Source: an uncultured delta proteobacterium (GTDB taxonomy: Bacteria; Myxococcota_A; Polyangia; Polyangiales; Polyangiaceae). From it: DNA of 64,000 nt. Below are positions 6,480 through 62,383 of the stretch, piece by piece (the first letter of the stretch is position 1; the number at the start of each line of letters is the position of its first letter). The translations under genes and the position numbers were made by a program. The stretch is from the NCBI GenBank assembly GCA_963782055.1, contig CAWAIF010000002.1:64001-128000 (forward strand), given 5' to 3'. Below the pieces are notes generated by a model that saw only the letters and a list, made by a program, of their open reading frames with translations, was not told where the DNA came from and ran no database searches.

Positions 6480-8107
6480 GACGCCTTCCCCTCCCTGATC
6501 GCCGCGCGCTCCAGCTCCCGCATCAGCAGCGCGGCGAAGGTCGGGTCGCACGAGTGCACCACCCGCAGGCGCTCCGGCCCGGCGCGGCCGATCATCGACC
6601 ACGAGGCCCGGGCGCCGTGCACCACCAGCACCTCGATCCCCTCGCAGCCGGGCGCGCCCTTCACGTCCAGGGTGCGAAGCTCGGCCTTCGTCGCGGCGCA
6701 CCCGTCGGCCGCCGCGCCGGCGAGCCGCGCGGTGTCGCTGGCGGCGACGTGAGCCGACACCGCGCCCGCGCGCAGCGCGTGGCGGAAGGCGTGAAGGACG
6801 ACGGACCGCGCGGCGTCGAGGGCCAGGTCGAGCGGGAAGGCGGACGACAGGTACTGCTCCACCAGCGGCTTCTGCAGCACGCGGTCGGCGATCTCGGCGA
6901 GCGAGGCGCCGGAGAGGTCGTGCGCACGCACCGGAGAGTGCCGGGACTCCAGCGCGCGCGCCCGCGCGAGGCGGATGAGCGCCATCGCCCGCACGCCGTC
7001 GGCGGGGACGTCCGCCAGCCCCACGCACGCCGCGAGGTCGAGCAGCATCGCCCGCGCCTGCTCGGCGGACACCTTGGGCATCAGCACGTAGGCCTCGCCG
7101 GCGGCCGTCGTGCCGAGCGCGCTACCCGCCACCGAGAGGGCGGGCGAGAGGGCGCCCGTGTCGACGCCCGCGCCGCCGGCCGGGGAGACCGCCGCCAGGA
7201 TGGCGAGGGGCGCGCCCCCGGTGCGAGCGAGGTCCACCTCGCGCTGCACCAGACGTTCGAACACCTCGATCGGCAGCGCGCGGCTGCGCGGCACCGTCGC
7301 CTCCTCCCCCACGGCGGCACGCGCCATCGCGGCGAGCGGGAGCAGCGTGCTCGCGAACTCGATGCACCGGTGCACCCGGGCGGTGCGCGCCGGGTCCGCC
7401 TGCTCCAGCAGCACGCACCCGAGCGAACGAGACTCGCTGGACAGAGAGAGGATCTCCCCCTGCCGGTTGGCGGCGAGCTGCGAGAGCTCCAGGTCGTTGT
7501 AGCTGTCGCGCAGCTCGAGGGCCGTGCCGAACACCGCCAGACGCGGGCGCGACCCGTCGGCCGCGCTCTCCGTCCCGAACACCGCCACGCCGCGCGCCCC
7601 GCTGGCGATCTGGAAGAGCGCCACCGTCGCCTCGGAGAGGGCCTGCGCGTCCACCGTGCGCGCGGCGGACACCGCCTGCGTCATCGCGTCGATGAGCTCG
7701 CTCTGATCGCGGGCGTCCGCGGCGAGCCGCGCGATGCGCTCCTCCACCGCCGTCCGTGCGCGCACATCGGCCACCGCGCGCAGCACCGCGTCGCCGGTGG
7801 GCGGCGCCACCAGCATCCCCGCGGCGCCGAGCGACATCGCCTCCGCCGCGAGCCCGAAGGTGGGCGGCGCGGCCAGCGCGTAGACCGCGATCTGCGCCGA
7901 GCTGGCGACCAGGTGATGCACCAGCGCGAGCCCCGCGGCGCCGGAGAGCGCCAGGTCCACCACCGCCACGCGCGGCAGCTCGTCGACCGCGGTCGTCAGC
8001 GCGGCCGCCATGTCGGTCGCGAGCAGGAAGGTCTCGCCGCCCTCCATGAGCGACGCCTCCATGGTGGCGCGCGTCGCCTCGTCCTGCGTGACGACCAGGA
8101 CCTTCAC
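6476..8107 (-). CDS. Atypical response regulator: pseudo-receiver, GAF-like, degenerate GGDEF and DICT-like C-terminus
   Basis: N-terminal REC fold (MKVLVV...VAVVDL...AMSLGAAGML). FERLVQREVDLAR..GAPLAIL...YVLMPKVSAEQA...VGLADVPADG is GGDEF-like without the GG(D/E)EF motif. Confidence 0.7.
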   Translation of the reverse strand: MKVLVVTQDEATRATMEASLMEGGETFLLATDMAAALTTAVDELPRVAVVDLALSGAAGLALVHHLVASSAQIAVYALAAPPTFGLAAEAMSLGAAGMLVAPPTGDAVLRAVADVRARTAVEERIARLAADARDQSELIDAMTQAVSAARTVDAQALSEATVALFQIASGARGVAVFGTESAADGSRPRLAVFGTALELRDSYNDLELSQLAANRQGEILSLSSESRSLGCVLLEQADPARTARVHRCIEFASTLLPLAAMARAAVGEEATVPRSRALPIEVFERLVQREVDLARTGGAPLAILAAVSPAGGAGVDTGALSPALSVAGSALGTTAAGEAYVLMPKVSAEQARAMLLDLAACVGLADVPADGVRAMALIRLARARALESRHSPVRAHDLSGASLAEIADRVLQKPLVEQYLSSAFPLDLALDAARSVVLHAFRHALRAGAVSAHVAASDTARLAGAAADGCAATKAELRTLDVKGAPGCEGIEVLVVHGARASWSMIGRAGPERLRVVHSCDPTFAALLMRELERAAIREGKAS

Positions 8108-52384: not shown

Positions 52385-54199
52385 TCAGAGCGCGACGACC
52401 TGATCCTGCGGGACGAGGATCATCGCGCTCTGCGCGGGCACCTGCACGGTGAGCGAGCCGTCGCTCGCGACGGTGTAGGTGGCCTGGTTGGGATCCAGCA
52501 CGTCCACCAGCACCGTCCCCGGCGCCGCGGTGAGCTTCAAGGGCGTGGTGCCGTCGGTCGTCGAGCTGGTCTTTCTGCCGTTGGTGTTCAGCACGACGAG
52601 CGCGTACTGGCTGCCCGCGTCCCCGCCGGTGCGCTCGAAGGCGAAGATGCCCGCGTCCCCCTCGCTGCCGGTGTGCGCGGTGGCGTAGACCACGTTGGTG
52701 TCGCCGCGGCGCAGCGCGAGGTACGCCTTGCGGATGCGCGTCAGCTTGGCGACGTGGCGGAAGGTGTCGCCCGTCGTGTCGAATCCGGTGTTCCAGAGCA
52801 CCTCGCGGTTCGCCGGGTCGTTGCCGCCGGAGAAGTCCTGCTCGGTGCCGTAGTAGATGCAGGGGATGCCGTCCTCGGTCAGCAGCAAGGTGAGCGCGTT
52901 GCGCAGCGCCGCCTTGTCGCCCTGCGCGTCGAAGAGGAAGCGCGCGACGTCGTGGTTGTCGAGGAAGTTCACCAGCGCCTTGGTGGGCGGGATGCCGATG
53001 CCGCCGTCCTGCGGCGTGGTGCCGTAGTTCTGCGGGCGCGACTCCCAGAGCGCCTTGATCTGGTCGGTGCCCTTCTGCGCGCTCGGGTCGTGCGCGTTCT
53101 CGAAGACGTCCTGGAAGACCTGGTAGTGCTGCGAGAAGTAAAAGACGCTGTCGAGCTCGCCCGGCACCGTGTAGCTGCCGAGGAGCTGGTCGTTGCCGTC
53201 GAAGGCCTCGCCGAACATGAGGAAGTTGTTCTTCCCCTCCGCCGCGAGGCGCTGGCGCACGCCCTTGGTGAAGACCTGCCAGAACTCGTGCTCGACGTGC
53301 TTCACCGTGTCGATGCGGAAGCCGTCGAAGTCCGCCAGCTCCACCCAGCGCGAGTACGCGTCGATCATGAGCTGCCGCACCTCCGGCAGCTCGGTCGCCA
53401 CGTCCTTCAGGCCGCCGGGGAAGTCGCCGAGGGTGCGCTGCTTCGGGTCGTCGTAGTTCAGGATGCGGCCGAAGCCGTGGTACGCGCGCGCCGTGCCGAG
53501 CAGGCCGGGCGGGGGCACGCGGTTGATCGACGGCATGTTCAGGAAGATGATCGGCGCGCGCCCGGCGGGGCCCGCCGAGGAGAAGGACTGCACGCCCTCC
53601 GGGTTCCAGTCCGGGTCGTACTCGCTGATGCGCGTGACGGGCGAGGTGGAGCCGGTGCCGCCGATGTACTCGTCCGGCTGCCCGTTGCGGTTGATGTCGT
53701 AATAAAAGAGCTGCCCCATGTGGTTGGTGACGATGTCCAGCACCACCTTCATGCCGCGCTCGTGCGCCGCGGCGACGAGGCTGCGGAGGCTGGCGATGTC
53801 GCCGAAGTGGGGGTTGGGCTGGTAGAGGTCCTGCGACCAGTAGCCGTGGTAGGAGTCGACGCCGGCGTCGGTATCCACGTTCTTCACGACGGGGGAGATC
53901 CACATCGTGGTGACGCCGAGCGCCTGCAGGTAGCCCAGGTGCTCCTCGAGGCCCTTCCAGTCGCCGCCCTGGAAGCGCGCGAGGTGGCCGGGCTGCACCG
54001 TCCAGTCGTTGTTCAGGTCGCCGTCGGCGAAGCGGTCGACGAGGACCTGGTAGATGACCTCGTCGCGCCAGTCGTCCACGTGGGTGGCGAGCTGCGCGGG
54101 CTTGCCGGTGTCGGGGAGGCCGACGCACGCCGTCTCGGGGAGCGCGGCGCTCGCGATGGCGAGCGCGGTCAGAATCCCGCGTACGAGCCCTAGACGCAT
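52385..54199 (-). CDS. GH13 alpha-amylase family lipoprotein
   Basis: Signal ending in TAC; DWRDEVIYQVLVDRF, YHGYW, DIVTNH, GFRIDTVKH, GE, FLDNHD, GIPCIYYGTEQ. Confidence 0.92.
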   Translation of the reverse strand: MRLGLVRGILTALAIASAALPETACVGLPDTGKPAQLATHVDDWRDEVIYQVLVDRFADGDLNNDWTVQPGHLARFQGGDWKGLEEHLGYLQALGVTTMWISPVVKNVDTDAGVDSYHGYWSQDLYQPNPHFGDIASLRSLVAAAHERGMKVVLDIVTNHMGQLFYYDINRNGQPDEYIGGTGSTSPVTRISEYDPDWNPEGVQSFSSAGPAGRAPIIFLNMPSINRVPPPGLLGTARAYHGFGRILNYDDPKQRTLGDFPGGLKDVATELPEVRQLMIDAYSRWVELADFDGFRIDTVKHVEHEFWQVFTKGVRQRLAAEGKNNFLMFGEAFDGNDQLLGSYTVPGELDSVFYFSQHYQVFQDVFENAHDPSAQKGTDQIKALWESRPQNYGTTPQDGGIGIPPTKALVNFLDNHDVARFLFDAQGDKAALRNALTLLLTEDGIPCIYYGTEQDFSGGNDPANREVLWNTGFDTTGDTFRHVAKLTRIRKAYLALRRGDTNVVYATAHTGSEGDAGIFAFERTGGDAGSQYALVVLNTNGRKTSSTTDGTTPLKLTAAPGTVLVDVLDPNQATYTVASDGSLTVQVPAQSAMILVPQDQVVAL

Positions 54200-54218: not shown

Positions 54219-55787
54219 TCACGGGTACGACGACGAGTTGAACCACCACTCCACCTGCAACCCCAGGTAGTGCTCCACGTCGCGCTGCGAGCGCACGTCG
54301 CTCGCGGGGTAGAGCTCGCGCGCGCCGTCGTCGGGCACGCTGAGCGCGTAGACCACGCGGAACTGCGGGCGCTTGTAGGATCCGCGGCCGCTGGGGGAGA
54401 AGTAGGGGAGCAGGGCGAAGCGCCACATGGATGCGACGAGCGGGCCCTGGCCGCCGCTCGCCGGGTCGGGGAAGGCGTAGCGGCGCGCCTGGTAGCTCGC
54501 CTCGCCGGCGACGCCGAAGTAGTTGCCCAGGAAGAGCTCCGGGCGCAGCACCAGCGTCCCCTCGTCGTAGCGCTGCAGGGAGGTGGGAGACTGGCTGCCG
54601 TCGCTGAAGTAGCGCAGGTAGCCGCCGGCCAGCAGGCCGAAGGCGCCCGTCTCCCAGTTGCCGCTCACCGCGAAGAGGGCCTCCTGCGCGTCGCCGGTGG
54701 TGCGGTCGTTGGCGAAGGTGGTGGGCGCCTCCAGCGTGTCGTACGCCGCGAGCCCGTGCGCGTAGCGCAGGAACATGTTGACGTAGGTGTCTCGCTGGCC
54801 GGTCCAGAAGCCCACCTGCGCCCCCACCAGGAAGCCGGTGTCGGAGGGGAGGCCGACGTCCTGGTTGCTGACCGGGTCGCGGTAGACGCCCGCGCCGATC
54901 TCGTGCGCCTCGCCGTAGAGCGCAGCCTTCATCCCCGCCTTCGGGTCGTGGAGGAGCCGCCCGTTCTGGAAGAGCTGCAGCACCTTCAGCGACTCGACCA
55001 TGCGCGGGCGGTCGAGCGACTCCACCCCCACCGAGCCGATGCCGAAGGGCGCCACGTCCTGCGTCGTCTGGTGCTGGTAGGGATCGTCCAGGCGCTGCAT
55101 GCCGACGTGCAGCGCCACGCTGGTGCCCGTCTTCTGGAAGGTGTACCCGCCGCCGCCACCGATGGTGTTCTGGTTGTCCAGCGGCCACCAGTCGAGCAGG
55201 TAGATGTCGTCGCCGCGGTACATGCGCGAGCCGATCCAGACGACGGCGTTCTTGTAGCGCGCCTGCGCGTACAGGTTGCGGACGAGGATCCCCTGCTCGG
55301 GGTGGCCGGTGAAGTGGAAGAAGGGCCCGGCGAAGGCCACCGTGGCGACCACGCGGGAGTCGATGTCGCCGGAGAAGGTGTCCTCGCGGCGCAGCTCCAG
55401 CTCGGCGTAGCTCTCCTCGTCGATGCGGGTGCCGTGCGACACCACGTTGATGGGCTGGGCGATGCGCCCCTCCAGGTCGCTGGCGATGCCCACGCGCCCG
55501 TAGGAGCCGAACTCGAAGTGGCCGGTGTGCGCCTGGCGCGCGGCGGGCGCGGCGCCGGGGGCGCGGGCGAGCCCCGGGTTGGTGGTCCCGCCGGCCGTGG
55601 CGTCGGGAGGTGCGTCGGTGCCGGCGGCGGGCGCGGGAGGCGTCGCCGGAGGCGGTGTGGCCGCCGCCGCGGTCGCCGACGCGCTCGGCGCGCTCGGCGC
55701 AGGAGGCGCGCCGGACTGCGCCGCCGCCGTGGCGCTCGCCAGCAGCAGCGCCGCCGCGGCGCAGGTCGTTCGGAGGGTTCGCATCAT
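54219..55787 (-). CDS. LamB/maltoporin-like carbohydrate porin
   Basis: Signal peptide; FGSYGR, EESYAEL, WIGSRMYRGDDIYLLDWWPL, RPQFRVVY, GLQVEWWF. Confidence 0.85.
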   Translation of the reverse strand: MMRTLRTTCAAAALLLASATAAAQSGAPPAPSAPSASATAAAATPPPATPPAPAAGTDAPPDATAGGTTNPGLARAPGAAPAARQAHTGHFEFGSYGRVGIASDLEGRIAQPINVVSHGTRIDEESYAELELRREDTFSGDIDSRVVATVAFAGPFFHFTGHPEQGILVRNLYAQARYKNAVVWIGSRMYRGDDIYLLDWWPLDNQNTIGGGGGYTFQKTGTSVALHVGMQRLDDPYQHQTTQDVAPFGIGSVGVESLDRPRMVESLKVLQLFQNGRLLHDPKAGMKAALYGEAHEIGAGVYRDPVSNQDVGLPSDTGFLVGAQVGFWTGQRDTYVNMFLRYAHGLAAYDTLEAPTTFANDRTTGDAQEALFAVSGNWETGAFGLLAGGYLRYFSDGSQSPTSLQRYDEGTLVLRPELFLGNYFGVAGEASYQARRYAFPDPASGGQGPLVASMWRFALLPYFSPSGRGSYKRPQFRVVYALSVPDDGARELYPASDVRSQRDVEHYLGLQVEWWFNSSSYP

Positions 55788-55791
55788 CGGG

Positions 55792-58700
55792 TCAGGGCGC
55801 GAGGATCGCCGCGCCGCGCGCCCCCAGCGTGAGGGAGATCGCGCCGCCGGAGACCACGACGTCGGGGCCGCCGAGCTTGTCTTTCAAGTGCGTCCCGTCT
55901 GCAAGGAAAAGCGTGACGGGCAGCGCGGTGGCGAGCGACTGCGGACCGTCGGTGTCGTTGATGGCGACCAGCGCCACGTCGCTCCCCGCCTGCCGCGCGA
56001 AGACGAGCACCTGGTCGGAGGCGTAGACGTGGCGATAGGCGCCGCGGCGCAGGGCGACCAGATCGCGCCGCGCCTCGCCCACCTTGCGGGTGAAGTCCAG
56101 CGTCGCCTGCTCGTCGGCGGAGAGGGTCTGCTCTCCGCGCCACATGTGGCGGTTGTTGGGGTCCGCCCCGCCCCACTCGCCGTACTCGTCGCCGTAGTAG
56201 AGCATCGGCGCGCCGGGCTGGGTGAGCAGCCAGGCGAGCGCCTCGCGGTGACGCGCGTACGGCTCAGCGTCGCCCGGCGCCTGCGCCACGTTCGTCCACT
56301 GGTTGCCCGGGATGCCCATGTCGTGCGCCTGGTCCTGTCCGCGGTAGTCCGCGAGCGTGACGTCGCGCGCGGTGTCCTGGCTGCCGATGTACGGCGACAT
56401 GATGGCGCCCTGCGGGTACTCCCACCCGCTCGCCTGCGCCCAGTAGTCGGCGTGGATCATCCCCTTCTGCCCGTAGTCGAACACCCGGTACGAGACGGCG
56501 TGATAGAGGACGAAGTCGAACTGGCCGTCCAGCTGGTACGGGCCGATGTAGCGCGAGATGGTGTCGTACTGGTCCTGGTTGCAGGCGAGACCGCAGTCGC
56601 TCCAGCCCATCGCCGTCTCGCCCGTCAAGAAGAACTTGGTGCCGCTCGCCTCGAACTCGTGACGCAGGCGGGTGCTCACGTTCATGACGGCGGCGTCCTG
56701 CAGGTGCTTGACCGCGTCGATGCGGTAGCCGTCCAGGTCGTAGGTGCTGGCCCACCAGACGGCGTCGTCGGTCCACTGCGCGCTCACCTCCGGCTTGGTC
56801 CAGTCGACGCGGGGCAGGTACGAGGCGAAGACGCAGTCCAGCCGGTGCGTCGTCCAGTCGCAGTTGTTGGTGCCGCACACGCAGCCCTGGATGAACCAGT
56901 CGGGGTGCGCCTTCACGTACTCGTGGTCCTTGTGCACGTCCCCGAGCATCAGGTCCATGATCACGCGGATGCCGTGCTCGTGCGCCGTCTTCACCATCGC
57001 CTTCAGGCCGGCGTCGCCGCCCAGGCGCGGGTCCACCTCCCGGGCCTTGATGGGCCAGTAGCCGTGGTAGCCGGTCACCTGGGTGACGCCGTCGGCGGCG
57101 GGGAAGGCGTCGGGCGTCGCGGTGTAGAAGGGCGTGAGCCAGATGGCGCGCACGCCCAGCTTGTCGAGGTCCCCGGCGGCGATGGCCTGCTGCACGCCCT
57201 CCAGGTCGCCGTTCTGGAAGTTGGCGCGCACGTCGACGCCCTGCACGGGCGGCACGTCGTTGGAGGTGTCGCCGTTCTTGAAGCGGTCGGTCACCGCCAT
57301 GTAGATGAGCGCGTCGTGCCAGTCGAAGGTCTCCGCCTCGACCCAGAAGACCAGGCGCAGGGTGGGCGCGGCGCGGCCCAGGCGGTCCTTCGCGTCGACG
57401 AACAGCGTGTACTTGCCGTCGGCGAGGTTCTGCAGGTCGAAGGCGATGGTGTCGCCCACGGCGTCCACCTGCGCCGGGGCGTCGCCGTCGGCGAAGTCCT
57501 TGCGGAGGGTGCCCTTCACGGTGGCGGGGTCGACGCCGGTCTGCGCCCAGCCGGGGAGGAAGTCGACGGTCGCCTGGTAGCGCCCCTGCCCCGGTGCTTG
57601 ACGGGTCAACGAATGCGTCTTCAGCGCGAGGGAAGGCGCGTAGCAGTCGGTCACCTGCACCGACGAGTTCTCCGTTCCGCCGACGAACTTGCGCGTCGTC
57701 GACGCCGGGTCGAACTGCCAGTTGCCGTCGACGACGAGCTTGTAGGCGTACAGGCCGGGTGACAGCGGGACCTTCGCGGTGAAGGCGCCGCTCCCGTCCG
57801 GGCCGGTCATCACCGCGCCGGGGGACTGGAATCCGTCCCACTCCCCGGCGACCGAGACGCTCTTGGGGATGGTCCCCGCGGCGGGGACGTAGCGGAAGGT
57901 GGTGGTGCACGCGCCGGCGTCCACGTCGACGGGCGGCGGCAGCGGTACGTCGGCACCGGCGTCGATCGGCGTCTGCCCGTCGCCGCCGGCGTCCGCGCCC
58001 GGGGGTGTGTCGGGGTTGCTGGAGCAGCCGAAGAGCGCGAGGGAGACGGCCGCGGTCGCCGCGACAATCCCGGCGCGCCGGCGCGCGCGGCGCAGGACGA
58101 GCAGCACACCGAGGAGCAGGATGGCGAGGGCGCCGGAGGGGGAGGCCGCGCCGGTCCCGATGGAGCAGCCGCCGTCGTTGCCGGGAGGGGTCGACGCGCC
58201 CGCGTCGGCGCCGCCGCCCGCGTCATCCATCGGGCCGGCGTCGCCCGCGTCGGGCGTCGCGGCGTCGGCGCCGGCGTCGCCCGGCTCGTCCGGCTCTGCG
58301 GCGAACGCGCCGCAGCTCGGCGTCACCGGCTCGCCGCGGTCCAGCAAGGACAGGAGGTACGCGCCCGCGCCGAAGCCGACCATCGGCGCCTCACCGGCGT
58401 AGTCGGCGGTGACGCGGTCGTGCAGCTCGGAGAAGAGGCCGAAGTTCTCGGCGGCCTGGTCCACGTTCCACGCCAGGCCGTCGGTCGCCGCCTGCGTGGC
58501 GCCGGTGAGCTCCAGCGCGTGGCCCGCGCGCAGGTCGACGAAGACCCACTCCTGCGAGTCGTACCAGCCGCCGGAGTCGTTGCGCATGAAGCCGCGGCCG
58601 CTCGGGGGCACGAGGCCCGCCTGCATCGCGTGGACGGTCGCCCTCGCGGTGTGCTTGGCGGGGTCGAAGAGGCCGAAGTTGATCGCCTCCACGGCCGCGG

Positions 58701-60384
58701 CGTCCAGCCACGCCTTGTCGGCGGCGAGCGACTCGGTCGCCTGCCCGATGGTGCCGTCCGGCGCGCGGAGCAACCCGAGGATGGCGTCGCGAGCCTTCTC
58801 GCCGGCCGTGAGGTACTTCGCCGAGTCGGCCGCGTCGTTCATCTGCGTGGCGAGCCCGGCGGCGGCGCACAGGCCGCGCGCGGCGGTGATGGTGGTGTAG
58901 GCGAAGTGCTTCTGCTGCCCGTTCCAGTGCACCTCCCAGATGCTGGAGTCCGGCGCGATGAGCCCGCTCGGCTCCTGCAGGCCCGCGAGCACGTCGGCGA
59001 CCTTGGACTGCACGGTGGGCCACCAGGCGGTGAGCGCCGCGGTGTCGTTGGACGCTTGCACGTACTCCGCGAGCTCCCACAAGAAGAGGCCGAAGCCGTC
59101 GAACTCGACGTTGGGGCCGTCCTGGTTGGTGTCGCTCTCCTCGGTGCCGTCGCCGTAGTAGCGCACGACCGAGATCTGGTACGGGGCGCCGACGTACGAC
59201 TCGTAGCCGCCGACCGTCGCCTTCATCTGGAAGTCGATGGCGCGCTTCGCCTCCGCCAGGTGTCCGCTGCGCGCGAGCGCGACGGTGGCGTAGGCCATGT
59301 CGCGCACCCAGGCGATGTTCCACTTGCCGGGGGCGATGCTGGCGAGGATCTGCCCGTCGCTCTTGTCCCCGGCGGCGACCTGCGCCATCCGCAGCACCGC
59401 CTGCGCCTGGGCGGCGTCGGCGGCCTCCACGGCCGTCGTGCCCTGCGGCGCGGGCTTCTGCCACGCGCTCCACGCGGCGATCTCGTCGGCGAGGATCTTG
59501 TCCGGCGCGCGCCCGGCGATCCAGGTGCGCACGCGGTCGACCGCGGCCTGCGCGTCGGCGTCGGCGGCGAGCACCGAGAACCACCCGGCGTACGCAGTGG
59601 CGTTCTGCGCGATGTCCCCCAGGCTGGACTGGAAGCCGCACACCGCGTCGTTGGTGGGGCTGCCCGGGCCCGCGTCGTCGGCGAGGTTCTGTCCGTTGAC
59701 GAGGCGCGTGTACGGGTTGTTCGGCGTCGCCCCGTGGTGCGTGGACGCCGCGATGCTCGCGTGCCCGAAGGCGACGCCGCTCGGCCCCCACTCGTAGTAG
59801 GCGTCGCGCCCGGCGTTGTACGCCATGCCCTCCGCGGTGGAGCTGGGCGCGGGGCTGCCGCTGCCCAGGTGGTAGTTCATGAGCGTGTACGCGTCGATCG
59901 CGCCGGAGCCGCTCTGCCGCGTCACCTTCAGCACGGTGAAGGCGGCGTTCTCCGCGAGGCCCATCGGCGCGAAGTCGAACTCCTCCACGGTGAGGCCCTG
60001 CCAGGAGCGCACCACGTGGATGATCCCGGTGCCCGGCACGTACTCGATCTTGCTCGGCGTGATGGTGTTCAGCCACGCGCCGGTGGTGCCCACGCGCAGG
60101 CCGGGGTACGCGTCGTAGAGGAAGTTGCGCGACTCCACCCCCGCGCTCGGGTACCGGTAGGGGTGCTCCAAGAACTGCGTCAGCTTGAAGGCGTTCGTGT
60201 CGAAGGCGATCGCCGCGCGGCCGTTGGAGGACGGGAGGGCGCCGATGGAGCGGTGAGGCTCGGCGGCCCGCGCCGTGGAGGTGGTCAGGAGGGCGAGCAC
60301 CGCGCCGAGGAGGAGCAGGCGCGCCCGGAAAGACAGGACCCAGAGCTTCGATACGGCCACCACGCCTCCTCCCGGAAGAGCCAT
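55792..60384 (-). CDS. Fusion: GH15-like glucoamylase + internal MYXO-CTERM + lipoprotein signal + CBM48-like + GH13 alpha-amylase
   Basis: GH15-like motifs AWVRDMAY, DSSIWEV and LFSE; DAG linker; GCSIG...LLLGVLLVLRRARRR; AVSLALFGC; VSVAGEWDGF...GLYAYKLVVDGNW (CBM48); IYMAVTDRF, YHGYWP, GYRIDAVKH, GET, PGAPMLYYGDE (GH13). Confidence 0.88.
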   Translation of the reverse strand: MALPGGGVVAVSKLWVLSFRARLLLLGAVLALLTTSTARAAEPHRSIGALPSSNGRAAIAFDTNAFKLTQFLEHPYRYPSAGVESRNFLYDAYPGLRVGTTGAWLNTITPSKIEYVPGTGIIHVVRSWQGLTVEEFDFAPMGLAENAAFTVLKVTRQSGSGAIDAYTLMNYHLGSGSPAPSSTAEGMAYNAGRDAYYEWGPSGVAFGHASIAASTHHGATPNNPYTRLVNGQNLADDAGPGSPTNDAVCGFQSSLGDIAQNATAYAGWFSVLAADADAQAAVDRVRTWIAGRAPDKILADEIAAWSAWQKPAPQGTTAVEAADAAQAQAVLRMAQVAAGDKSDGQILASIAPGKWNIAWVRDMAYATVALARSGHLAEAKRAIDFQMKATVGGYESYVGAPYQISVVRYYGDGTEESDTNQDGPNVEFDGFGLFLWELAEYVQASNDTAALTAWWPTVQSKVADVLAGLQEPSGLIAPDSSIWEVHWNGQQKHFAYTTITAARGLCAAAGLATQMNDAADSAKYLTAGEKARDAILGLLRAPDGTIGQATESLAADKAWLDAAAVEAINFGLFDPAKHTARATVHAMQAGLVPPSGRGFMRNDSGGWYDSQEWVFVDLRAGHALELTGATQAATDGLAWNVDQAAENFGLFSELHDRVTADYAGEAPMVGFGAGAYLLSLLDRGEPVTPSCGAFAAEPDEPGDAGADAATPDAGDAGPMDDAGGGADAGASTPPGNDGGCSIGTGAASPSGALAILLLGVLLVLRRARRRAGIVAATAAVSLALFGCSSNPDTPPGADAGGDGQTPIDAGADVPLPPPVDVDAGACTTTFRYVPAAGTIPKSVSVAGEWDGFQSPGAVMTGPDGSGAFTAKVPLSPGLYAYKLVVDGNWQFDPASTTRKFVGGTENSSVQVTDCYAPSLALKTHSLTRQAPGQGRYQATVDFLPGWAQTGVDPATVKGTLRKDFADGDAPAQVDAVGDTIAFDLQNLADGKYTLFVDAKDRLGRAAPTLRLVFWVEAETFDWHDALIYMAVTDRFKNGDTSNDVPPVQGVDVRANFQNGDLEGVQQAIAAGDLDKLGVRAIWLTPFYTATPDAFPAADGVTQVTGYHGYWPIKAREVDPRLGGDAGLKAMVKTAHEHGIRVIMDLMLGDVHKDHEYVKAHPDWFIQGCVCGTNNCDWTTHRLDCVFASYLPRVDWTKPEVSAQWTDDAVWWASTYDLDGYRIDAVKHLQDAAVMNVSTRLRHEFEASGTKFFLTGETAMGWSDCGLACNQDQYDTISRYIGPYQLDGQFDFVLYHAVSYRVFDYGQKGMIHADYWAQASGWEYPQGAIMSPYIGSQDTARDVTLADYRGQDQAHDMGIPGNQWTNVAQAPGDAEPYARHREALAWLLTQPGAPMLYYGDEYGEWGGADPNNRHMWRGEQTLSADEQATLDFTRKVGEARRDLVALRRGAYRHVYASDQVLVFARQAGSDVALVAINDTDGPQSLATALPVTLFLADGTHLKDKLGGPDVVVSGGAISLTLGARGAAILAP

Positions 60385-60491: not shown

Positions 60492-62255
60492 CTAGCGGAA
60501 GGGACCGGCGCCGGCCAGGCCCCGTTTCGCGCGCAGGAGCCGGGCGATCGCCTCCAGCCGGGGGCGCAGCGTCTCGGGGTCGGGCGTGGGCTCGGGGACC
60601 AGGTAGCCCGCCTCCTCCCGGCGCACGTGGAGGTGGACGGCCTCCTCCAGCTCCTGGAGGAGCTCGCGGGTGGCGGGCGAGAGGGTGGGATCGTCCGGGC
60701 TGAGGTCCTGCTCGAGGGGCGGGTCGATGGGGAAGCTGACCAGCGTCCCCATCAGGGTGCCGTTCGGCTGCCAGACCGTGCCCACGTCGAAGCGGTCGAC
60801 CCCCAGCGCGCCGCCGTGCACCCACATGCGGCCGGCCTCGAAGTGGCCGCCCACCCGCTCGGCGAAGGCGCGCCACGCCCCCGCGTCCTCGGCCATCGCC
60901 GCGGGGGGAGGCACCCGCGCCACCGCCTGCGCGAGCGCCTCCAGCAGGGCCACGGCCTCCGTCGCCAGCTTCTCCAGGCTGGCGGTGGACCCTGGCGAGC
61001 CGCTGAAGGTGACGACGGCGCCGTCGTCGTCCATGGTCACCGAGGCGCCGCGCACGAGCCGGTCCAGCAGGTCGTCGTCGAAGAAGGCCTCGATCTGCGC
61101 CGCCTCCCGGCCGCGGATGGTGAAGCGGTCCCCCGCCTTCCCCGGCGCCGCCCAGGTGCGCCCCAGCACGTCGGTCCAGCGCTTCTCGCCGACGTGCAGG
61201 TCCAGCCCGAGGTGCGGCCACGCGTAGCGCGCGGCGGTGGCCAGCGCGCCCTCCCGCAGCTCTCGCCCGAGCTGCAGCTTCACCTCGCCCCGCTCGGCGT
61301 GAAGTGAGCCCCTGCCGGGGTCGAACTCCAGCTCCAGCCGCTCGCCCACCTGCGACCAGATGCGTGCCATCCGGTCGCGCCCCACCGGCCACACGCGCCC
61401 GGAGGGCTTCTTGCGCGTCGCGCCGGGAGGGGGCCGCAGCACCTTGAGGGGGATGCTCACCACCAGGTCGCGCCCGAGCACCACGTCGGCGCGCACCTCC
61501 ACCCGCCAGTCGAAGCCGAAGAAGCTCGCGCGGAAGGTGGGCGGCGCCTCCGCCGGCATCGTCACGCGGAAGCGCAGCGGCTCCCCCTCCGGCGGCGGCC
61601 CGGAGACGACGAGCGCGCGGTAAAAGCGCGTGTCGTACGCGCCCAACGTCGGCTTGAAGATGCGCTCCGTCCCGACGAAGGTCACGTACACCGCGCGGAT
61701 GCGCGCCGCGTGCACGTTGTTGAAGGAGACGGCGCCGGTGAGCGCGTCGCCTGGCGCGAGCTGCGTCGTGTCCACCGACACCTCGGCGTAGACGGCGCCC
61801 GGCTGGGGGCCCTTCGGCGAGCTGGCGACCAGCACCGGCGCGGTCGGCTCGGGGAGGGCGAAGGTCGGCGCCACCGAGAGGGTGAAGCTGGTGTGCCTGT
61901 CCGGCCACCACGGGATGTCCACGTGCACGTCCACCGTGTACGTCGACTGCGCGTGCTGCCCGGTGAAGGTGGGCGGCGACCCGGCGGGCACCGAGAAGCG
62001 GAAGCGCCGCTTGTACTCCCCCACGCCAAGCTCCCCCGGAGTCCAGCGCTGCGGCAGGCGAAGCCACGGGCGGTGGAGGACCTGCATCCCTCGACCGTCC
62101 CCCACCACGGTGCGCTCGCTCGCGGAGAAGACGAGGTCGACGAAGCGGGTCGGCGTCGCCGACCGGCTCCCCAGCACCACGATGAGCTCGAACGGCTCCC
62201 CGGCGACGAGCGGCTTCTTCGACACGAGGAGCCTCACCGTCGGCCGACTGCGCAT
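60492..62255 (-). CDS. Hypothetical protein with tandem arrestin/SpoOM-like domains
   Basis: Two repeats: GEYKRRFRFSVPAGSPPTF..Y.VDVHVDIPWWPD and LRFRVTMPAEAPPTF...WRVEVRADVVLGRD. Confidence 0.7.
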   Translation of the reverse strand: MRSRPTVRLLVSKKPLVAGEPFELIVVLGSRSATPTRFVDLVFSASERTVVGDGRGMQVLHRPWLRLPQRWTPGELGVGEYKRRFRFSVPAGSPPTFTGQHAQSTYTVDVHVDIPWWPDRHTSFTLSVAPTFALPEPTAPVLVASSPKGPQPGAVYAEVSVDTTQLAPGDALTGAVSFNNVHAARIRAVYVTFVGTERIFKPTLGAYDTRFYRALVVSGPPPEGEPLRFRVTMPAEAPPTFRASFFGFDWRVEVRADVVLGRDLVVSIPLKVLRPPPGATRKKPSGRVWPVGRDRMARIWSQVGERLELEFDPGRGSLHAERGEVKLQLGRELREGALATAARYAWPHLGLDLHVGEKRWTDVLGRTWAAPGKAGDRFTIRGREAAQIEAFFDDDLLDRLVRGASVTMDDDGAVVTFSGSPGSTASLEKLATEAVALLEALAQAVARVPPPAAMAEDAGAWRAFAERVGGHFEAGRMWVHGGALGVDRFDVGTVWQPNGTLMGTLVSFPIDPPLEQDLSPDDPTLSPATRELLQELEEAVHLHVRREEAGYLVPEPTPDPETLRPRLEAIARLLRAKRGLAGAGPFR

Positions 62256-62383
62256 CGCGCCGAGCATACCCCAGCGCGTCCGGCCCCGAACCGCCGCGGC
62301 CCCAGGGCCGATACGCACGGCTGGGTCCGGTCGTTGAGGTCTGGCGCGGCGGCTCGTCCCGCGCTAACACCCCCGCCGGACCC

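Follow-up and report, generated by a model that had tools for sequence, protein, structure and literature searches.

A single stop-free gene in the window, which is the whole 64,000-nucleotide stretch of DNA analysed here, encodes a GH15 and a GH13 enzyme joined by an internal MYXO-CTERM tag that shares its Arg cluster with an internal lipoprotein signal. The chain is probably a secretory polyprotein that myxosortase and Lgt/LspA would cut into two lipid-anchored enzymes, a cleavage that we infer from its sorting signals. Judged by sequence comparison, the architecture is real, conserved and widespread; it is a variant of known sorting systems and was partly anticipated in print.

Gene organization and the two enzyme halves

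The features of the gene and its neighbours are collected in Table 1. The sole stop in the translated ORF is the terminal one (1530 aa), and the domain order proposed in the initial annotation was borne out by translation, hydropathy, Pfam and TIGR03901. Translation probably begins at the GTG at 60360, giving 1522 aa; its ribosome-binding energy is -12.1 kcal/mol versus -4.0 kcal/mol for the ATG, and the database entry for the fused protein has 1522 aa. The Pfam matches span residues 354-527 (GH15), 841-912 (AMPK1_CBM, CBM48-like), 1032-1407 (alpha-amylase) and 1448-1527 (C-terminal domain). A bacterial arrestin-fold protein with Arrestin_N and Arrestin_C matches is encoded directly upstream of the fused gene (60492-62318, minus strand), and a further GH13 lipoprotein-like gene runs into the window at its right end.

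Table 1. Positions of the fused gene, its predicted parts and neighbouring genes in the window
Feature	Position	Strand	Basis or remark
Fused GH15-GH13 gene, predicted secretory polyprotein	55792..60384	-	Stop-free ORF, 1530 aa from first ATG
N-terminal Sec signal peptide	60265..60360	-	Hydropathy; predicted cut after ARA (aa 40), site read from sequence
GH15 enzyme, beta-sandwich and helical barrel	58309..60261	-	Pfam PF00723, fold model, Foldseek, motif conservation
Asp/Ala/Gly-rich linker ahead of tag	58174..58308	-	Sequence
Internal MYXO-CTERM	58075..58173	-	GGC740 motif, helix aa 751-764, RRARRR aa 765-770; TIGR03901
Internal lipoprotein signal	58024..58092	-	n-region is the shared Arg cluster, h-region aa 771-786, LFG-C787, Ser at +2
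Asp/Ala/Gly/Pro-rich tether behind lipobox	57910..58023	-	Sequence
CBM48-like glycogen/starch-binding domain	57649..57864	-	PF16561, E 8.8e-9
GH13 catalytic domain and C-terminal domain	55804..57291	-	PF00128; triad Asp1223, Glu1256, Asp1337
LamB-family porin	54219..55787	-	PF02264, E 8.7e-27; begins 4 bases past the stop of the fused gene
Second GH13, stand-alone, secreted, same cluster	52385..54199	-	PF00128, E 1.4e-53

The fold model of the GH15 half has a pLDDT of 96. A sequence search of solved structures with this half found nothing, and the match came instead from the fold search, in which 9ju0, 1ug9 and 1lf6 were the best Foldseek hits. The fold resembles dextran dextrinase, glucodextranase and bacterial glucoamylase at 12-17% identity. 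Both the helical barrel of GH15 and its two glutamates are present; Glu484 and Glu653, which we take from familiar motifs to be the catalytic pair, are invariant in 53 aligned sequences. The half stays below the cut-off for TIGR01577 and for the trehalase models, and its fold matches dextran-active and starch-active GH15 enzymes alike. Of the initial description as an exo-acting glucoamylase, the GH15 fold is retained, but the name is too specific, as dextran-active enzymes match equally.

The nearest solved relative of the GH13 half is the alpha-amylase 4e2o (E 1e-42). Its Asp, Glu and Asp triad (conserved regions II-IV) is present and is kept in all fused sequences covering those positions. 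In conserved region I, Gly1148-Asp1149 (56938-56943) replaces the usual Asn-His, a feature common to one other of 95 sequences, and activity or calcium binding may differ on this account. The GH13 half also has six cysteines that never vary among the fused sequences not gapped at those positions (37/37 for one, 41/41 for the other five), and their conservation fits an oxidising compartment.

The junction and its conservation

At the junction, GCSIGTG occupies residues 739-745, with Cys740 at nucleotides 58165-58167, and is followed by RRARRR (residues 765-770, nucleotides 58075-58092) and by LFGC (residues 784-787, Cys787 at 58024-58026); the positions first given for RRARRR and LFGC787 proved exact on re-translation. 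The Kyte-Doolittle mean exceeds 1.9 only in the N-terminal signal and the two junction stretches. TIGR03901 spans residues 738-769 with 18.7-19.1 bits by hmmscan and 20.7 bits in the genome search, which is borderline against the cut-off of 20. The NF058595 'invert_tail' model matches the junction weakly (14.3 bits, cut-off 37).

The tag resembles the MYXO-CTERM/myxosortase system (TIGR03901; MrtX, MrtC) in its Cys motif, hydrophobic helix and Arg cluster, in the N-terminal signal peptide of the protein, and in a genome that holds many tags (28 above the cut-off) and a cognate protease. It departs from that system in position, with 761 residues behind it in place of a C-terminus, and in sharing its Arg cluster with the downstream signal. 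The predicted myxosortase of the genome, MrtC, scores 274.5 bits against a cut-off of 195, and a myxosortase core above the cut-off was found in five of five relatives tested. The MrtC type of this enzyme and the labels of homologs would place the genome in Polyangiaceae or close by within Myxococcota. The genome also encodes two LspA and three Lgt proteins.

Around Cys787, a basic n-region, an h-region and a lipobox with a small residue before the terminal Cys, followed by a flexible tether, are shared with bacterial lipoproteins (Lgt, LspA, Lnt). Unlike in those proteins, the signal lies inside the chain and lacks its own initiator Met; the Cys is residue 787, and there is no credible in-frame start upstream. 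A Phe at position -2 of the lipobox falls outside the textbook pattern. The same Phe is also seen in the stand-alone signals of split orthologs, whose GH13 proteins are ordinary predicted lipoproteins, and in one of them (G033) the stand-alone lipoprotein signal has LFGC itself.

Both signals are kept in 38 of 39 fused protein clusters, 34 by a scripted test for the first Cys, the helix, the Arg cluster and the second Cys, and four by eye with a short h-region. The lipobox Cys is present in all 39, including the one cluster whose hinge has collapsed. In 12 aligned junctions the only invariant elements are Gly-Cys, one Arg and the lipobox Cys, and among the fused homologs the linkers have diverged while both sorting signals stay intact. 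In the 34 scripted cases the distance from Arg to Cys is at least 16 residues, with a median of 22, and the median hydrophobicity of the h-region is 2.0 in fused versus 2.16 in stand-alone signals. On this comparative evidence both junction signals appear to be still functional. The collapsed hinge belongs to a same-genus protein (P0014 of G002; L034, junction near 6707-6996 of the reversed locus), which has a single hydrophobic stretch between the two Cys residues and no Arg cluster, and which carries a frameshift further on in the GH13 half that may be an error. The collapse may be due to decay once the second signal had been lost, or to an assembly error.

Fused and split relatives

The initial annotation had asked whether orthologs are fused or split, and both states occur: the fusion recurs in many relatives, and the split ones have a stop and a new start. 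Four of the six same-genus genomes are fused (G001, G002, G003 and G006); of the other two, G005 is cleanly split, and G004, with several frameshifts, appears split. Fusions in G048 and G050 add two further families. Of 81 genome loci (the window and 80 others), 10 are fused and 41 split, 22 have no adjacent GH13 gene and 8 are cut by contig ends; one of the 10 (L119), scored as fused by the script, has a junction interrupted by an N gap and was excluded from later counts. The 56 metagenome loci comprise 6 fused, 23 split, 22 without an adjacent GH13 gene and 5 unusable ones. GH15-to-GH13 fusions make up 39 of 80 protein clusters (841-2678 residues), a share in which fusions are over-represented, the protein search having chosen long proteins through its length limit. 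These three sets partly overlap and contain related sequences, so their counts are not independent.

In the split orthologs the tag stands in its usual place at the end of the GH15 gene, and the GH13 gene opens with a lipoprotein signal. Stop and start overlap in 49 of 64 split loci, and the ribosome-binding site often lies within the Arg codons. The fused form would have arisen from two ancestrally overlapping genes, one for GH15 with its MYXO-CTERM and the next for the GH13 lipoprotein, that came into one frame, and a small indel at the stop/start overlap would yield it. The two-gene state is seen in the orthologs, and the direction of change is inferred from the tree.

Fused and split states were placed on a GH15 tree of 110 rows, of which 42 were used. 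They require at least six changes, five of them forced by well-supported branches. The clade of the window contains 12 fused and two split rows (support 96), and the split rows are nested inside, which points to a re-split within the genus. From the state changes on the tree and this re-split, the fusion is seen to be repeatedly gained, tolerated rather than required, and reversible. The 1:1 stoichiometry first offered as its rationale is not supported for this locus, since most split orthologs already have overlapping stop and start codons and a return to two genes has taken place in the lineage. A selective advantage of fixed stoichiometry was rejected as the origin of the fusion.

One of the nested split rows has a palindrome with 42-base arms at the break. 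Palindromic repeats of this kind sit in the cytoplasmic loop of the hinge at L074:2633-2823 and L054:6157-6268 and in L133, P0006, P0016 and P0022; they preserve the frame where the locus is fused and lie at the break where it is split. Other arrangements of the same enzymes were met with as well. P0038 and P0040 are fusions in the reverse order, GH13 to GH15, through an EGF-like segment and without a membrane hinge, and in P0068 and P0070 the same hinge joins GH15 to other partners, a large Ig-repeat lipoprotein and a xylose-type ABC sugar-binding protein.

Proposed processing of the chain and its parallels

In the proposed mechanism, the N-terminal signal would export the GH15 domain, and the helix 751-764 would halt transfer, with RRARRR staying in the cytoplasm. 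The second hydrophobic stretch would then resume export, and Cys787 would reach the periplasm together with the CBM48-GH13 half. Cys740 would be lipidated, after which MrtC would cut behind it, as proposed for terminal tags, and Cys787 would be handled by Lgt and LspA as the start of a lipoprotein. The outcome would be a C-terminally anchored GH15 enzyme of about 700 aa (41-740), an N-terminally anchored GH13 enzyme of 744 aa (787-1530) and a discarded hairpin of 46 residues; these sizes correct the first estimate of about 740 aa for each product. Both enzymes would act on alpha-glucans beside the LamB porin. That the internal tag scores only about at the family cut-off and that MrtC is a myxosortase by prediction were counted against this two-cut reading. 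The scheme calls for no dedicated machinery, which would account for the repeated gain and loss of such fusions.

It is conceivable, if unlikely, that only one cut is made: myxosortase would free the GH15 enzyme, and the exported CBM48-GH13 half would stay tied to the inner membrane by the hairpin, lipidated or not. Of the two cuts, the one at MYXO-CTERM alone has experimental precedent (PMC11980579); cleavage by MrtX requires the Cys of the tag and works in E. coli. A literature search that covered few subscription papers found neither internal lipobox processing by Lgt/LspA nor a tag-plus-signal polyprotein. The terms 'internal', 'fused' and 'polyprotein' are absent from the accessible part of 10.1101/2023.06.07.544157, and fused TraAB is not mentioned in the accessible part of PMC6372800. 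Against a single cut stand the retention of the lipobox Cys in every fused cluster, even the collapsed one, and the Ala-x-Ala signal peptidase I sites that other chained proteins hold at the same place.

Another alternative, quite unlikely on present evidence, is loss of the stop codon combined with an internal restart, in which a separate in-frame start would serve the GH13 lipoprotein and the tail added to GH15 by read-through would be removed with the tag. As the ORF contains no stop, translation from the 5' start must in any case yield the full-length chain. Ribosome pairing was computed with an anti-Shine-Dalgarno motif that we assume to be the appropriate one. An in-frame start at -6 or stronger was found in 6 of 16 fused loci, against a background of 21 of 82 internal start-like codons in the fused ORF, and long-insert loci (e.g. 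G003, G048) carry a Met before the h-region. Yet in 4 of the 16 the interval 12-35 codons ahead of the lipobox Cys contains no candidate start, the candidates elsewhere are not conserved in position, and the ancestral start is gone together with its purine-rich site. The sole candidate in the window is the GTG of Val760, in mid-helix and without a ribosome-binding site; its pairing energy is -0.3 kcal/mol, whereas the 49 overlapping starts of split loci have a median of -9.5. An internal restart in this gene is thus unlikely as far as these predictions go, though it may occur at some of the other fused loci.

Improbable, too, is a chain that is not cut, a bifunctional inner-membrane enzyme on a helical hairpin with both domains in the periplasm and the two Cys residues vestigial or disulfide-linked. 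The hinge-free fusions P0038 and P0040 suggest that a single bifunctional chain is workable, but the tag retains the full tripartite consensus of terminal tags in the same genome, and the same hinge joins GH15 to unrelated partners, including the sugar-binding protein (P0068, P0070). Finally, removal of a stop codon by an assembly error has a negligible probability and is effectively refuted as the origin of the fusion: although no public contig placed on the gene spans the junction, two G5 runs (at 58001 and 58138) lie inside 58000-58200 and some long-contig relatives have frameshifts, dozens of independent assemblies are fused with diverged junction DNA, and in-frame GC3 runs unbroken at 0.94-0.96 across the junction. 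By these comparisons the fused ORF is genuine and not a sequencing error. The reported lack of GATC and GATTC at the junction holds for 58000-58200, which is also free of GAATC, the nearest GATC being at 57964. Small shares of the gene were found in three public DNA runs of one study, and no RNA run is listed.

The hinge of tag and following signal also occurs in other proteins. Internal tags account for 2 of the 28 tags above the cut-off in the source genome (G000), and in two other genomes for 1 of the best 30 of 46 tags and for 2 of 18. The search suggested earlier, for an internal MYXO-CTERM followed by a lipobox, succeeded for all five internal tags in the three genomes, with the best 30 of 46 considered in one of them. 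The second internal-tag protein of the source genome, P0081 (tag at G000:C3 2859744-2859848; L188:8116-12336, minus strand), is unrelated to the GH15-GH13 protein; it is 1406 residues long and carries one lipobox at its N-terminus and another behind an internal tag, and neither half matched in a Pfam search. Across the order, 28 of 30 loci of its family carry the fusion, one is split and one is cut by a contig end; the P0081 fusion is probably older and more stable than that of the amylase gene.

A profile search with the junction yielded 48 representatives, 46 of them new, and in 22 of the 46 the script flagged a tag at a distance of over 60 residues from the end. These 22 mostly continue with a lipobox or an Ala-x-Ala signal, and a few have no recognisable signal. 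P0083 is a chain of four tagged units and P0082, P0112 and P0118 have three; the chain partners, known here from protein sequences alone, include amidases, carboxypeptidases, and Ig-repeat and propeller proteins. The three- and four-unit proteins end with a further terminal tag, which would make no sense unless the later units were exported. In the multi-unit chains (P0082, P0083, P0112, P0118 and P0108) the second signals are mostly of the signal peptidase I type. Among the terminal-tag genes of the source genome (e.g. C3:5049022, 5078372 and 5048387), 5 of 33 overlap the start of the next ORF, and three of the five overlapped ORFs look signal-bearing, as in a pre-fusion state. It is slightly more likely than not that these chains follow a general polyprotein grammar of Myxococcota, in which a tag and the next signal share an Arg cluster, one ORF yields two to four exported proteins, and housekeeping enzymes, including Lgt/LspA deep inside the chain, would separate them.

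Several known precursors show parts of this arrangement. Bradyrhizobium japonicum FbcH, the precursor of cytochromes b and c1, likewise gives two proteins from one bacterial ORF by way of an internal signal peptide. It differs from the two-anchor scheme considered here in that signal peptidase I makes one cut, the first half is a polytopic membrane protein, and no lipid anchors are known. The beta/alpha-amylase precursor of Paenibacillus (Bacillus) polymyxa resembles the present chain in holding two starch-degrading enzymes in one secreted precursor; it is cut by extracellular proteolysis and is not known to have a membrane hinge or anchors. The closest precedent in print for an internal MYXO-CTERM, which the initial annotation had regarded as a departure from the normal, is MXAN_5598 of Myxococcus xanthus, described in a passage of PMC11980579 as a likely fusion of two overlapping genes. 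Both the internal tag and the proposed origin are thus shared with the present gene. The N-terminal half of MXAN_5598 is proposed there to be processed and anchored, with no test reported in that passage, and the protein is among the vesicle proteins listed in PMC4158809. Its second half is described as an outer-membrane barrel with OmpA, whereas here it is a lipoprotein enzyme, and the MXAN_5598 passage of PMC11980579 mentions no second signal peptide, lipobox or fate of the second half.

If the two-cut reading is true, bacteria have signal-peptidase-processed polyproteins, as enveloped viruses do, assembled from standard sorting signals. An N-terminal signal would then not be a requirement for lipoprotein maturation, and annotation tools that read protein ends alone would mis-call a class of surface proteins. 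The locus offers a convenient test, with two assayable enzymes and natural fused and split alleles in one genus, to which the function of a myxosortase in E. coli adds. The hinge could also serve to display several enzymes from one ORF.
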